From assembly GCF_053078305.1 (NCBI RefSeq), contig NZ_CP166875.1: DNA of 64,000 nucleotides, one strand, 5' to 3'. Made by a program: the position numbers and the translations under genes. The notes beneath the pieces are model-generated. The model had not been told where the DNA came from. It saw only the letters and a list, made by a program, of their open reading frames with translations, and searched no databases. This stretch comes from a plasmid. Below, piece by piece: positions 27,903 through 32,601 of this stretch; the stretch's first letter is position 1; every line of letters starts with the position of its first letter.

Positions 27903-28788
27903 ATTTAGTTATCTCCTCAGTATAAAGAGGTTTATTTTCAAACGCTCTTGGTGGAAATGGATTAAAAAACTTTGCTTCTTCATCCACAGGAATACCTGGA
28001 ATTTCTCCATAATAAGGATTGCCAACAGGAAACTTTTCCAGTGAGACATAAAACAATACATTCCAGTTAAAAATCATAGGATCATTACTATCAACATCAT
28101 GGATTATGATGGCGTCCTAAGCCAGTTCTCCAGGAATTAATACATCTGTATGATAAAAACCTGAATAGTAATCACTATTAGTAGAATGTATAGGGCAAGC
28201 AAAGCGATTCATTTTAGTATCTGAGTGCCATGTGGTTGATATTTTTTCTGGTGCGGGAATGATGAAATCTGCTATCATAATATTAAGAAAATACTTTACA
28301 GATATATCCAGTTTCATCTGGTTTCTCCTTTATTGTTATCGTGTACCGGTGCATGACAACATAATCACAGCATGATAATAACAATCAATAACAATCAATA
28401 ACAATAAGCTGTGTCACGTTTACATCATGGAACGGAGGTGCTCCTGTGACCTTTGAGCAGAAAAAAGCCCGGCCATGCCCTGATGGACAGCAAAAAGATG
28501 TGGCGGAGCAATTATGCCCCTCCTCTTCTGCGTATTCTCTGGCGGCTGGGTATCCGGCTTCCGCCATTACCCTTTATGCCGTTCTGGCAGGTCACGCTGT
28601 TGATGGGGCTCTGTGGGAATTTCTGCGATAACACCCGCTAAGCGATTTCTCCCTGACGGAAATCACTTGTTTTCCGTCAGGTCCTGCAGTTGAAGAACAT
28701 TGAATCCATAAATCTGCGATTTTTTGCGTGACAAACCCTGTCGGAATGAGAAACTGTACGGAAACTTCAATTTTAAGGTTTGTCGCAC

Positions 28789-29412
28789 ATGTTGATTGGT
28801 TATATGCGGGTATCAAGCAATGATGAACGTCAGTCAGTTTCTTTGCAGCGTGATGCGTTGATTGCTGCCGGAGTGGATCCCCGGCATTTACATCAGGATC
28901 ATGCTTCAGGTGCTCGTGATAATCGCCCGGGACTTAAGTCCTGTCTCGCTGAACTTCGCGAAGGTGATGTACTGATAGTCTGGAAACTGGATCGACTTGG
29001 TCGTTCACTCTCACATTTGCTCCGAATTATTGAAGACCTGAAAATTCGTGGTATTGCTTTCCGATCATTGACTGAATCTATTGATACAACAACGCCACAC
29101 GGCTCGTTCCTCTTTAACCTTTTTGGCACGCTCGCGGAGTACGAAAGAGCACTTATCACAGAACGCGTTAATGCTGGTCTGGCTGCTGCTCTCCGGCGGG
29201 GGCGAAAAGGCGGAAGGCCACCGGCGATAGATGCTGAAAAGGTTGATCAAATCCTCGCAGCTCTGGAAGGAGGTGCCAGTAAAGCGTCAGTATGTCGCGC
29301 ATTCAGTGTGCCACGCTCAACACTCACCGATACTCTACGACGAATTGGCTGGGCCGGACCTGGGGGCCGTAATCTGACAACGGATCAGAGCAATGTCATT
29401 TCTCGACGCTAA
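28789..29412 (+). CDS. tnpR: Tn3-family resolvase
   Basis: MLIGYMRVSSNDERQSVSLQRDAL...; serine recombinase with C-terminal HTH. Confidence 0.88.
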   Translation: MLIGYMRVSSNDERQSVSLQRDALIAAGVDPRHLHQDHASGARDNRPGLKSCLAELREGDVLIVWKLDRLGRSLSHLLRIIEDLKIRGIAFRSLTESIDTTTPHGSFLFNLFGTLAEYERALITERVNAGLAAALRRGRKGGRPPAIDAEKVDQILAALEGGASKASVCRAFSVPRSTLTDTLRRIGWAGPGGRNLTTDQSNVISRR

Positions 29413-32359
29413 ATCGTACGATACGCTTTTTGGATTACCTGAACTTTATGAGGATGCACTTCCCCGGTTTTCGCTCTCCTGCGAGGATATTGCATTCGCC
29501 AGAACTCATCGTCGATCTCATAACCGTCTGGGTTTTGCCATTCAGCTTGCACTTGTCCGTGATCTCGGTCGTACACTGCGTGCAGGAGAGATTCCCCCGG
29601 AGGCTGTTATCACCGTTGTTGCGGAACAACTGGATATTGACCCTGCTGTTTTTACACTTTACGCGCAACGTGAGGAAACCCGTCGGGAACATGCCCGCGA
29701 AATAGTTTCGGCTTTGGCGCTTCGTTCCATCCGGAGTAGCGATTACAGAATGCTCATTATCGCGGCTACACGCGAAGCAGCAACCACCGAAAAAGGACTG
29801 CCGATCACCAGAGCAGTTATCAATAAGCTGAAGGACCAGAAGTTACTTGCTCCTGCTCCGGCGCAACTAATCCGTCTGGCAATGGCGGGCCGGGCGGCTG
29901 CCCGTCGCCTTTCTTATCGGGAACTCATCAGGGATCTGAAACCTTCATCCATTAGCGCTCTCGAGCAGTTGCTTACCGAACGAGTCGGAGAAAAGAGCAT
30001 TTTAGGCTGGATAGCTGAAGCGCCGGAAGGCGTGAAGCTCAAGAATCTTAAGGGGTTAATTGCCAGGCTGGAGGTATTACGAGCAGCGGCAATCTCCGAT
30101 GAGCAACGTAAACGGATTCATGTAAACCGTTACGGTATTATTGCCCGGGATTCTCGCGTTTTACATGCGCGTGAAATACAACGAATGGCATCCGAACGCC
30201 GTCATGCCACGCTGGTAGCCTTTGTTATTGAAAAGCAGGCAACAATTACAGATCTGGCAATTGATATGTTCTGCAAATTGATTGGCAGCACGAGGCGCAG
30301 AGCAGAGATAAGCCAGAAAGAGCGTCGTCTGAAAGCCGCTGAAGTACTTGAAGTCGTAGCTCAGGATCATATTAAGCTGGGACGGGCTCTCCTGGCAGCA
30401 CGTGATGGTAATACTGATATTGAATCTGTAATAACAGCATCACTCGGCTGGGAAGGTTTGATTGCCAGTATGGAGGCTGCAGCTTCGGTGGCATCTTCCC
30501 ATCACTGTTCTGAACTGGATGAACTTATTGGACGACAAAAATCATTACGTAAGCTTGGACGACTCATTTTCAGTGCTTTTTCTTTCAGAGCTTTTCGCCC
30601 GGATGATAGCGTTTTGTTGGCGATTGGGTATTTGCAGGCGTTCTATCATGGCCGAAAATTACCCAAACAAATTCCGCTCGATTTTATGTCCCATAAATGG
30701 CGACGTCGTGTCATCCATGGAGAAAATACCGATCTGCAGGCGTGGGAAGTCGCCGTATTCGTTCATTTGCGAGAACGCCTGAAAACAGGTGACATATGGG
30801 TTGATGGTAGTCGGGCCTGGCGTAGTTTTGAGGACTACCTTCTTCCTCACCATGTTTTCGGGCAGATGCGGGCAGAATCCCGGCTGGGACTTGCCATTCC
30901 GGACAACTTTGCTGAATGGCGGGCTGAGCGAACCACCACACTCAACGCAAAACTGAAAGCGCTGGCAAAAGCTGCTTCGGAGAATGCCATACCCGATGCA
31001 GAACTTTCCAGCAGAGGGTTGTCTGTGTCTCCGATTCGCGAAGAAGAGAACGACAAAATTAAGGCTCTCAGCCGTAAACTATACATGCTGGTACCACGCA
31101 TCAGAATTACCAGTTTGCTGGCAGAAGTTCATAGCTGGACCAGTTTTCTTGATTGTTTCACACATTATCGCACCGGGGAACAGGCGGAAGATGAAGCTGC
31201 ACTTATGGCTGCGATCCTTGCCGATGCGACGAATGCGGGAGCAGAACGGATGGCGCAGAGTTCCCGGGGGGTCACCATTCACCAGATGATGGTAATGATG
31301 GATCGTCATTTACGCACTGAAACCTATGCGTCTGCCACATCAGTTCTGGTCGATGCGCAACAGGAACATCCTTTTGCTGCTATATGGGGTGATGGGCATG
31401 TGTCATCCTCGGACAGGCAGTTTTTTCCTGCGGGTGGACGAGGAGAAGCCAGCCTCGAATATAACGCCAAATACGGCAAACGACCTGGCGCGTCGATTTA
31501 TGGTTTTTTATCGAACCGTTTTGCATCCTTTTTTTCCAGAATGATTCAGGCCTCTGAAAGCGAGGCTCCCTACGTACTTGACGGCTTACTTCATAACGAA
31601 AGTTCTGTGGAGATTCATGAGCATGCCACCGATACAGCCGGTGCGACTGAAACAACATTTTCAATGTTTCACTCTTTTGGTTACAGACTCATACCCCGTA
31701 TTCGCAACCTCGGCAGTCGCAGGTTGTACGTTATTTCACCTTCTGAGGAATATAAACCACTTGATGCCCTGATCGCCGGAAAGGCCAAAATGGAAGTAAT
31801 AGAACAGCACTGGGATGAAGTTTTGCGGCTTAAGGCCTCGATCGGCGCTGGTCTGGTACCACCATCGGTAATACTGAAAAAGCTGGCAGCATCTCCGAGA
31901 CAAAACAGGCTCAATCTGGCCCTGCGTGAAATGGGACGTATTGAACGCTCAATTTTTATCTGTGACTGGTTGCTTGACACTCGGTTACGTCGCAGATCAC
32001 ACGCAATCCTCAACAAAGGCGAAAGCCGCCATGCACTTGCCCGCGCTATTTTTCTTCACCAACTGGGCGAATTCCGGAACAGGGCTGCCGAGACAATGGC
32101 TCACAGGGCATCGGGCCTCAACCTTGTTGTTAATGCAATAATTCTGTGGAACACGGTCTATCTCAGTCGGGCTGTTGATTACATTCGCAGCCAAGGAATC
32201 ATTATACCGGAAGAGCTTTTGTCCAGTGTATCACCACTACCATGGGGTCATATCTCGCTCACTGGAGATTACCTGTGGAACGAAATTGACCATCCCCTTG
32301 AACGATACAGGCCACTTCGTACTAATCGCTTCAATCCAAAGAACTTCACTTTTCCTTAG
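29393..32359 (+). CDS. tnpA: Tn3-family transposase
   Basis: 988 aa MSFLDAKSYDTLFGLPELYEDALPRFSLSCEDIAFA...; ends inside right IR. Confidence 0.88.
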   Translation: MSFLDAKSYDTLFGLPELYEDALPRFSLSCEDIAFARTHRRSHNRLGFAIQLALVRDLGRTLRAGEIPPEAVITVVAEQLDIDPAVFTLYAQREETRREHAREIVSALALRSIRSSDYRMLIIAATREAATTEKGLPITRAVINKLKDQKLLAPAPAQLIRLAMAGRAAARRLSYRELIRDLKPSSISALEQLLTERVGEKSILGWIAEAPEGVKLKNLKGLIARLEVLRAAAISDEQRKRIHVNRYGIIARDSRVLHAREIQRMASERRHATLVAFVIEKQATITDLAIDMFCKLIGSTRRRAEISQKERRLKAAEVLEVVAQDHIKLGRALLAARDGNTDIESVITASLGWEGLIASMEAAASVASSHHCSELDELIGRQKSLRKLGRLIFSAFSFRAFRPDDSVLLAIGYLQAFYHGRKLPKQIPLDFMSHKWRRRVIHGENTDLQAWEVAVFVHLRERLKTGDIWVDGSRAWRSFEDYLLPHHVFGQMRAESRLGLAIPDNFAEWRAERTTTLNAKLKALAKAASENAIPDAELSSRGLSVSPIREEENDKIKALSRKLYMLVPRIRITSLLAEVHSWTSFLDCFTHYRTGEQAEDEAALMAAILADATNAGAERMAQSSRGVTIHQMMVMMDRHLRTETYASATSVLVDAQQEHPFAAIWGDGHVSSSDRQFFPAGGRGEASLEYNAKYGKRPGASIYGFLSNRFASFFSRMIQASESEAPYVLDGLLHNESSVEIHEHATDTAGATETTFSMFHSFGYRLIPRIRNLGSRRLYVISPSEEYKPLDALIAGKAKMEVIEQHWDEVLRLKASIGAGLVPPSVILKKLAASPRQNRLNLALREMGRIERSIFICDWLLDTRLRRRSHAILNKGESRHALARAIFLHQLGEFRNRAAETMAHRASGLNLVVNAIILWNTVYLSRAVDYIRSQGIIIPEELLSSVSPLPWGHISLTGDYLWNEIDHPLERYRPLRTNRFNPKNFTFP

Positions 32360-32601
32360 CGTGTATTATCGCAGAAATGCCCACGGAACCCCTTGATGGG
32401 GAGCTTATGGGGCATTTCCTGGGGATGTGCAATGTGGTTTATCTACTGGGGGCCGTCAGGAATGGTGGCAGGTGAGGCCATTATTATAAGTATCACGGGT
32501 GGTTTTTTGTTCGGACTGCTCACGGCCTCTTTCCACTGGTGGCGCAGGAAAGTTAACCGGCTGCCACCATGGGATGATGTGTAAACCGTGCAGGCATGTT
32601 T

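Follow-up and report, generated by a model that had tools for sequence, protein, structure and literature searches.

The sequence analyzed here is a 64,000-nt stretch of a plasmid (contig NZ_CP166875.1 of assembly GCF_053078305.1; this whole stretch is hereafter called the window), and its subject is a two-gene transposon located at positions 28605–32392. We conclude, with a probability of about 0.9, that this is a known and widespread Tn3-family transposon devoid of passenger genes, which a single transposition event brought into codon 53/54 of a 115-codon gene of the DUF6404 family, on an IncFII-type F-like plasmid. The finding is an ordinary one: public databases already contain the element, its family and the exact insertion. 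An earlier note, made from the letters of the window alone, had described a minimal tnpR–tnpA transposon bounded by intact 38-bp inverted repeats and a TTGAT duplication, that had probably inserted recently into a small gene of about 70 codons. The transposon, its duplication and the simple nature of the insertion stood up to closer inspection; the identity, frame and length of the gene had to be corrected, and the view of an intact and recent copy had to be tempered.

The element is 3,788 bp long, with a G+C content (49.7%) near that of the window (48.8%). Its ends were defined with a repeat finder and by exact comparison: the left inverted repeat (IRL, 28605–28642, plus strand, GGGG...CGCTAAG; GGGGCTCTGTGGGAATTTCTGCGATAACACCCGCTAAG) and the right inverted repeat (IRR, 32355–32392, minus strand; reverse complement GGGGTTCCGTGGGCATTTCTGCGATAATACACGCTAAG) match in 33 of their 38 positions, the likeness breaking off sharply after position 38. 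A copy of TTGAT lies flush with the outer edge of each repeat (28600–28604 on the left, 32393–32397 on the right). The termini of nine further copies of the element were aligned as well, and the boundaries were identical in all of them. A 24-nt pattern corresponding to the core of the repeats matched two sites only in the window, namely IRL and IRR (0.00 expected from 100 shuffles), and the window holds a single copy of this type of inverted repeat element, which would be compatible with target immunity but does not count as evidence for it. The word "intact", as applied to these repeats, needs to be qualified: they have their full 38 bp and clear boundaries, but in the common variant of the element 36 of the 38 positions agree, the window copy having three extra substitutions (IRL positions 5 and 8, and position 32365 in IRR).

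The gene content of the element is restricted to tnpR and tnpA, both on the plus strand and both recognized by Pfam or NCBIfam models above cutoff. The last 20 nt of tnpR are shared with the start of tnpA, whose stop codon falls within IRR, so that non-coding sequence is limited to the 146-bp spacer that separates IRL from tnpR (28643–28788); passenger genes are therefore absent. Several features that define the Tn3 family were found: a DDE transposase of about 1,000 residues with its catalytic triad, inverted repeats of about 38 bp of the GGGG...TAAG type, and a 5-bp target duplication.

Proof that we are dealing with a single, simple insertion came from the empty site. The element was excised in silico together with one copy of TTGAT (removal of 28605–32397), and the resulting 938-bp sequence was searched against the PLSDB plasmids and the complete E. 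coli genomes, a match being defined as at least 80% coverage. The restored site is uninterrupted in 1,569 PLSDB plasmids and 1,222 complete E. coli genomes, where a "DUF6404 family protein" is annotated across the junction. The top match, pFHI_NMBU_11_02 (99.3% identity), shares synteny with the window to the left and to the right of the site, and its alignment crosses the junction without a gap, through one TCGAT where the window has two TTGAT. Because the empty site aligns gap-free through a single 5-mer, the element came in by simple insertion and duplicated 5 bp of its target. The backbone of the window is of the IncFII type.

The occupied junction was absent from both of these BLAST collections. 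It was found, by way of the TnpA accession WP_072010641.1, in another E. coli assembly, GCA_026420205.1 (contig JAPMMO010000038.1), hereafter the twin assembly. There, the element is 100% identical to that of the window, and the contig matches the window over 26394–33646, that is, over both inverted repeats, both TTGAT copies, 2.2 kb of the left flank and 1.25 kb of the right flank, the sole difference being a TT at 28476; the sequences diverge past 33647. The exact insertion is thus already in public data.

We rebuilt the interrupted gene and searched it against Pfam. Its 5' part (28446–28604, plus strand) comprises the native GTG start at 28446 and codons 1–53 plus 2 nt, and bears a lineage-specific frameshift; its 3' part (32398–32584, plus strand) runs from the last base of codon 54 to codon 115 plus the stop codon, and is identical to the corresponding part of the intact gene in pFHI_NMBU_11_02. 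This intact homologue (12060–12407) encodes 115 residues, starts at the GTG equivalent to 28446 (VTFEQKKARAIALMDSKKMW...) and matches Pfam PF19942 over model positions 1–114 of 115 with 125 bits. In the window, two 1-bp losses at 28471–28476 (plus strand; GGG to GG at 28471–28472 and TT to T at 28476) cut the native GTG off the DUF6404 body: the sequence reads GCCCGGCCATGCCC, versus GCCCGGGCCATTGCCC in pFHI_NMBU_11_02 or GCCCGGGCAATTGCCC in pCP55-141k. The full-length matches, found in about 2,090 plasmids, all have 143 bases in this region, versus 141 in the window, and the two-base-short version was found in no PLSDB plasmid and in no complete E. coli genome. Since the G and the T are lost, the frame opened at 28446 is out of register with the conserved protein from codon 10 on. 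The conserved frame is instead that of TTG 28453/ATG 28483: after excision, it is open to 32584, encodes 112 residues, and matches DUF6404 with an E-value of 9.7e-33 (113 bits, cutoff 27.6) over model positions 7–114 of 115.

The twin assembly shares the loss of the G and keeps the TT (net −1, versus net −2 in the window). Being present in both assemblies, the G loss is real; the T is missing from the window alone, either through a later mutation or through an error. In any case, the window contains no uninterrupted reading frame from the native start: the gene is split at codon 53/54 by the transposon and frameshifted at codons 10–12, and is hence a pseudogene with two kinds of lesion. The term "DUF6404" was not found in the searchable literature. 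Two further features of this locus deserve mention. An open reading frame that starts within the right-hand duplication (TTG ATG ..., 32393–32584) covers the last 62 residues of DUF6404 and lies 37 nt past the tnpA stop codon; this fragment could in principle be expressed by read-through from tnpA, and no convincing ribosome-binding site was seen for it. Upstream from the gene, a 10-bp unit, AACAATCAAT, is repeated in tandem at 28381–28410, with one copy more than in pCP55-141k.

tnpA (29393–32359, plus strand) encodes a 988-residue DDE transposase recognized by Pfam DUF4158 and DDE_Tnp_Tn3 (8e-134) and by the NCBIfam equivalog model NF033527, transpos_Tn3 (918 bits for a cutoff of 500). Residues 12–977 align with the TnpA of Tn4430 (7qd8, E-value 3.7e-152), and the triad D674/D747/E877 corresponds to D679/D751/E881, the catalytic triad of the Tn4430 enzyme (PMC9579193). 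All three residues are invariant in an alignment of 49 sequences that are 20–90% identical. The position next to the first of them stands out: codon 675 (31415–31417, plus strand) is AGG and specifies an arginine, a substitution (G675R) that is private to this lineage. In the same alignment, the 48 other TnpAs have Gly (41), Ala (6) or Ser (1) at this position. Gly is also found in Tn4430 and in six more members of the 90%-identity cluster, the codon being GGG in the closest copy of the element, that of plasmid pN51a. Altogether, position 675 is Gly or Ala in 54 of the 55 other Tn3-family transposases in the comparison and Ser in the remaining one, which leaves Arg unique among the 56 TnpAs. 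R675 is present in the twin assembly as well. Relative to the pN51a sibling, only A284T and G675R are private to the window lineage, and both are nonsynonymous. Relative to the common variant, the window copy has 47 substitutions (29 synonymous, 10 nonsynonymous and 8 non-coding, with 3 located in the inverted repeats), a pattern typical of purifying selection.

tnpR (28789–29412, plus strand, ATG start) encodes a 207-residue serine recombinase (Pfam Resolvase, 2.5e-43, plus HTH_7), of the same length as the annotated protein WP_000904945.1. Its nearest relative of known structure is the Gin invertase (4m6f, E-value 6e-50): the N-terminal MLIGYMRVSS pairs with MLIGYVRVST, and the catalytic serine, Ser9, is in place and aligned with Ser9 of Gin. 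A C-terminal tail of about 28 residues extends past the Gin alignment.

In Tn3-family members whose two genes are co-directional, the resolution site res lies upstream from tnpR, with site I, where crossover occurs, in the distal position (PMC7157771). We therefore propose, tentatively, the 146-bp spacer (28643–28788, plus strand) as a candidate res region. Three of the seven matches of the window to the TGWCGGAAW half-site cluster there, and it contains a palindrome at 28652–28681 (CCTGACGGAAATCA-CT-TGTTTTCCGTCAGG) whose 14-nt arms are 93% complementary. The spacer was aligned with those of relatives whose TnpAs are 72–89% identical (from Xenorhabdus, a metagenome, Aurantimonas and Rhizobium). 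In this footprint, the palindrome TGACGGAAA-N8-TTTCCGTCA (28654–28679) is conserved while the adjacent sequence drifts, and six sequences, with TnpA identities as low as 72%, share its core, TGACGG.AA.C...TG.TTTCCG, without change; two other conserved blocks lie at about 28729–28766 and at 28775–28790. The palindrome is the distal block with respect to tnpR, as predicted for site I, and would accordingly be the candidate subsite I. It was also considered as an intrinsic terminator, which was ruled out: there is no T-tract and no terminator was called. In the Rhizobium relative, a PIN/Phd toxin–antitoxin pair lies beside the element; since an IR-like sequence separates this pair from res, it is probably located outside the element.

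The element is found well beyond this plasmid. With at least 80% coverage, the same 3,788-bp sequence occurs in 63 plasmid records from E. coli and Salmonella, with 98.8–99.9% identity, and weaker matches were obtained in Klebsiella, Citrobacter and others. It is present in 33 complete E. coli genomes, in up to nine places per genome, and its carriers include IncF, ColE1-like, IncX and P-type plasmids; the 90%-identity cluster of its TnpA has 1,336 member sequences. This distribution clearly points to a cryptic transposon that is mobile in E. coli populations. Three of the nine other copies that we aligned have perfect 5-bp duplications of their own (TAAAA, AGATA and AAGAA). The flanks of the six others do not match, which indicates later flank exchange. 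In addition, two different plasmids have the same right flank and different left flanks of the element, which suggests that res- or homology-mediated exchange of flanks is frequent among copies.

Two of the other copies are of particular relevance. The closest one (99.9% identity) is carried by pN51a (NZ_JBUBMP010000002.1, 8001–11785) at an unrelated site in a microcin/colicin region. Its tnpA has two 1-bp deletions and is annotated as frameshifted, the last base of its IRR is a T instead of a C, and its flanks (TTGTA on one side, TTAAG or TAAGG on the other) do not match. pN51a can therefore be ruled out as the source of the window, given its different site and its frameshifted tnpA. The second, in pCP55-141k (NZ_CP053733.1, 4955–8876), is a copy of the common variant that interrupts the same gene, DUF6404, at a point 27 bp upstream from the site occupied in the window. 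Its left flank (...CCCTTTAT) is followed by the initial GGGG of the element, its right flank has given way to a DUF6685 gene of unrelated sequence, and the two flanks lack a matching duplication. This copy represents an independent insertion, and pCP55-141k does not carry the junction of the window. The two insertions into DUF6404, 27 bp apart, may hint at a local target preference.

We did not recover a formal Tn or IS name for this element: NCBIfam offers the generic Tn3 model only, the names in a collection of 5.8 billion proteins are generic too, and the labels of the Prokaryotic Genome Annotation Pipeline (PGAP) are limited to "Tn3 family transposase" and "recombinase family protein". Literature searches by length, inverted repeat sequence, protein accession and description returned nothing applicable, and the literature on ISEc63 deals with bla contexts and has no link to the element.

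Other accounts of the locus have to be set against this one. The element could have arrived by recombination between two copies, either res by res or homologous, the matching 5-mers being then a coincidence. Flank exchange is indeed common among the other copies, as the six with non-matching 5-mers illustrate, and the pCP55-141k copy, in the very same gene, has had its right flank replaced. In the window, however, the element separates two halves of a single gene, which rejoin perfectly via a single 5-mer, and a 5-bp match has a probability of about 1 in 1,000 of occurring at random; we hold this route to be barely credible. We give just as little credence to the proposal of the earlier note that the interrupted gene is a frame of about 70 codons continuing from the GTG at 28446. 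It is true that this GTG is the native start of a real gene and that, upon excision, the frame stays open for 78 codons across the junction. But the 78-residue product has no Pfam match, while the other frame gives the DUF6404 hit cited above; intact alleles encode 115 residues in a single frame; and in the twin assembly the 28446 frame ends after 12 codons. The 78-codon frame exists solely through the net −2 deletion of the window and is not the real gene. Could the frameshift at 28471–28476, the AGG codon, or both, be assembly errors, the 5' end of the target gene and TnpA being in fact wild type? The missing bases belong to short homopolymers, the window and its twin differ precisely at the T at 28476, and the two assemblies may stem from related or identical isolates. 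Yet the G loss and R675 occur in two separate assemblies, and the window assembly is not generally indel-prone: despite many homopolymers, we counted no indel in 3,000 bp of right flank compared to pFHI_NMBU_11_02, and none in 1,234 bp of left flank compared to pCP55-141k, save the difference in copy number of the 10-bp tandem repeat. We consider this explanation unlikely.

The activity of the resident copy is a more balanced matter. The copy keeps both reading frames and the DDE triad, but G675R plausibly impairs catalysis, for it places a bulky charged residue where small ones prevail, beside a catalytic aspartate. Together with the three extra substitutions in the inverted repeats, it leads us to give even odds to the possibility that the copy transposes poorly or not at all. 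The opposite account, in which G675R and these three substitutions are neutral and the copy is a live, recently arrived transposon, is a genuine contender to which we grant a somewhat lesser chance. It has in its favor that both genes are full length with Ser9 and the triad intact, and that the variant repeats are common to the pN51a copy, located at another site, so that this form of the repeats has transposed at least once. It has to accommodate an arginine that is unique among the 56 TnpAs and abuts the first catalytic aspartate, as well as the nonsynonymous nature of both changes that set the window copy apart from its sibling. In addition, the exact R675 protein (WP_072010641.1) is on record on two contigs only and, as the retrievable one has the same junction as the window, this one contig gives no sign of movement since the mutation. 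The perfect duplication and the restriction of the insertion to one lineage would fit a recent event, as had been suggested; the decay of the target gene, the variant repeats and the two private nonsynonymous changes in tnpA, G675R in particular, weaken the image of an intact newcomer. A bolder idea is that the G675R copy has been immobilised in nature, still has bindable inverted repeats and acts as a resident immunity tag, and that DUF6404 is a preferred landing site. We regard this as very unlikely; if true, such a tag could shield the plasmid lineage from insertions of active relatives.

Several points weigh against our interpretation, be it of the insertion, of res or of the impaired activity. 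Rearranged junctions are frequent among the other copies, six of nine lacking matching 5-bp flanks, though the junctions of the window are not among them. A simple scan of the spacer upstream from tnpR detected no sigma-70-like promoter. Distant relatives tolerate Ala and Ser at position 675, and our view of G675R is drawn from conservation. Finally, both the movement assigned to this copy and the placement of res are argued from what is known of the family and from sequence.

Transposition of Tn3-family elements follows an established scheme. Applied to the single transposition event that we favor, it would run as follows for an element with the layout IRL–res–tnpR–tnpA–IRR, the two genes being read rightward. 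TnpA would bind the 38-bp inverted repeats, nick their 3' ends and join them to target cuts staggered by 5 bp; replication across the element would then produce a cointegrate, which TnpR, as a serine recombinase, would resolve at res, upstream from tnpR, the candidate crossover site being the palindrome at 28652–28681. The predicted outcome is one copy of the element between TTGAT duplicates.

The rest of the window contains a second, unrelated Tn3-family element (11069–14968), with 34-nt inverted repeats (11069–11102 and 14935–14968), a divergent serine recombinase gene (11126–11719, minus strand) and a gene for a 1,012-residue TnpA (11864–14902; transpos_Tn3, 605 bits). The 5-mers that flank it, AAAAA and ACTGT, do not match, so that it lacks an intact duplication, and it lies inside larger inverted repeats (9737–9857 and 15299–15419; 121 nt, 97%). 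We considered its TnpA as a helper acting in trans: the protein is 26% identical to the TnpA studied here and the inverted repeats are different, which makes trans-activation unlikely. To the right of the DUF6404 locus, in the interval 33606–33868, two direct copies of a repeat of about 30 bp (CCCGCCGCGCAGATCCGGTTTCCGGCT) precede a patch in which the window diverges sharply from both the twin assembly and pFHI_NMBU_11_02, and which has the look of a recombination patch or of a variable repeat region. Backbone landmarks comprise an IncFII RepA (5947–6816), a ParB-like protein of a type known from F-plasmid leading regions (50603–52561) and an IS66-family transposase (59057–60670).

These results have a few practical implications. 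As regards annotation, the locus should be described as a DUF6404 pseudogene with two lesions rather than as an open reading frame of about 70 codons. The element could drive plasmid cointegration and the exchange of flanks, mismatched flanks being frequent among its copies. Lastly, G675R is a natural variant located beside the first catalytic aspartate, and could provide a simple test case for the function of Tn3-family transposases.

The closest known system is the unnamed 3,788-bp element of E. coli and Salmonella (TnpA WP_000008826.1 or WP_072024409.1; TnpR WP_000904945.1), exemplified by NZ_CP062880.1, pUTME-12-4-pColE1, p33673_IncF, the pZ1323HEC0422 plasmids and pN51a. The window copy has the same length, genes and inverted repeat boundaries, and duplications of 5 bp as well; its identity is 98.8–98.9% with the common variant, from which its 47 substitutions set it apart, and 99.9% with the copy in pN51a, G675R and A284T being private to its lineage. 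The copy in GCA_026420205.1, whose TnpA is WP_072010641.1, has the same junctions, duplication and inverted repeats, and its surroundings differ from the window by the TT that is kept in the target gene (net −1). More distantly, members of the Tn3 family, including Tn4430, have 38-bp inverted repeats, generate 5-bp duplications and transpose by a paste-and-copy mechanism, and the resolution system of Tn4430 relies on a tyrosine recombinase (TnpI/irs). The window element differs from Tn4430 on this last point, having a serine recombinase. The TnpA of Tn4430, which originates from Bacillus thuringiensis (PDB 7QD4–7QD8; PMC9579193), can nonetheless be aligned with that of the window and has the DDE triad in common with it, the similarity being distant. 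By description, Tn5501 and TnTsp1 (PMC7157771) display the same order IR–res–tnpR–tnpA–IR; they carry toxin–antitoxin or other passenger genes beside res, whereas the window element carries none. As for TnpR, it matches Gin (4m6f and 3uj3, E-values about 1e-50) far better than the gamma-delta or Tn3 resolvases (1e-24 to 1e-26). It can be likened, by description, to the invertase-like resolvase subfamily reported for ISXc5 (Liu et al. 1998, as relayed in PMC7157771, and to the extent of that account). Unlike the Gin/Hin-type invertases, the tnpR gene of the window lies inside a transposon, upstream from tnpA, and its relatives keep the upstream palindrome; this position and this conserved palindrome would fit a resolvase role.

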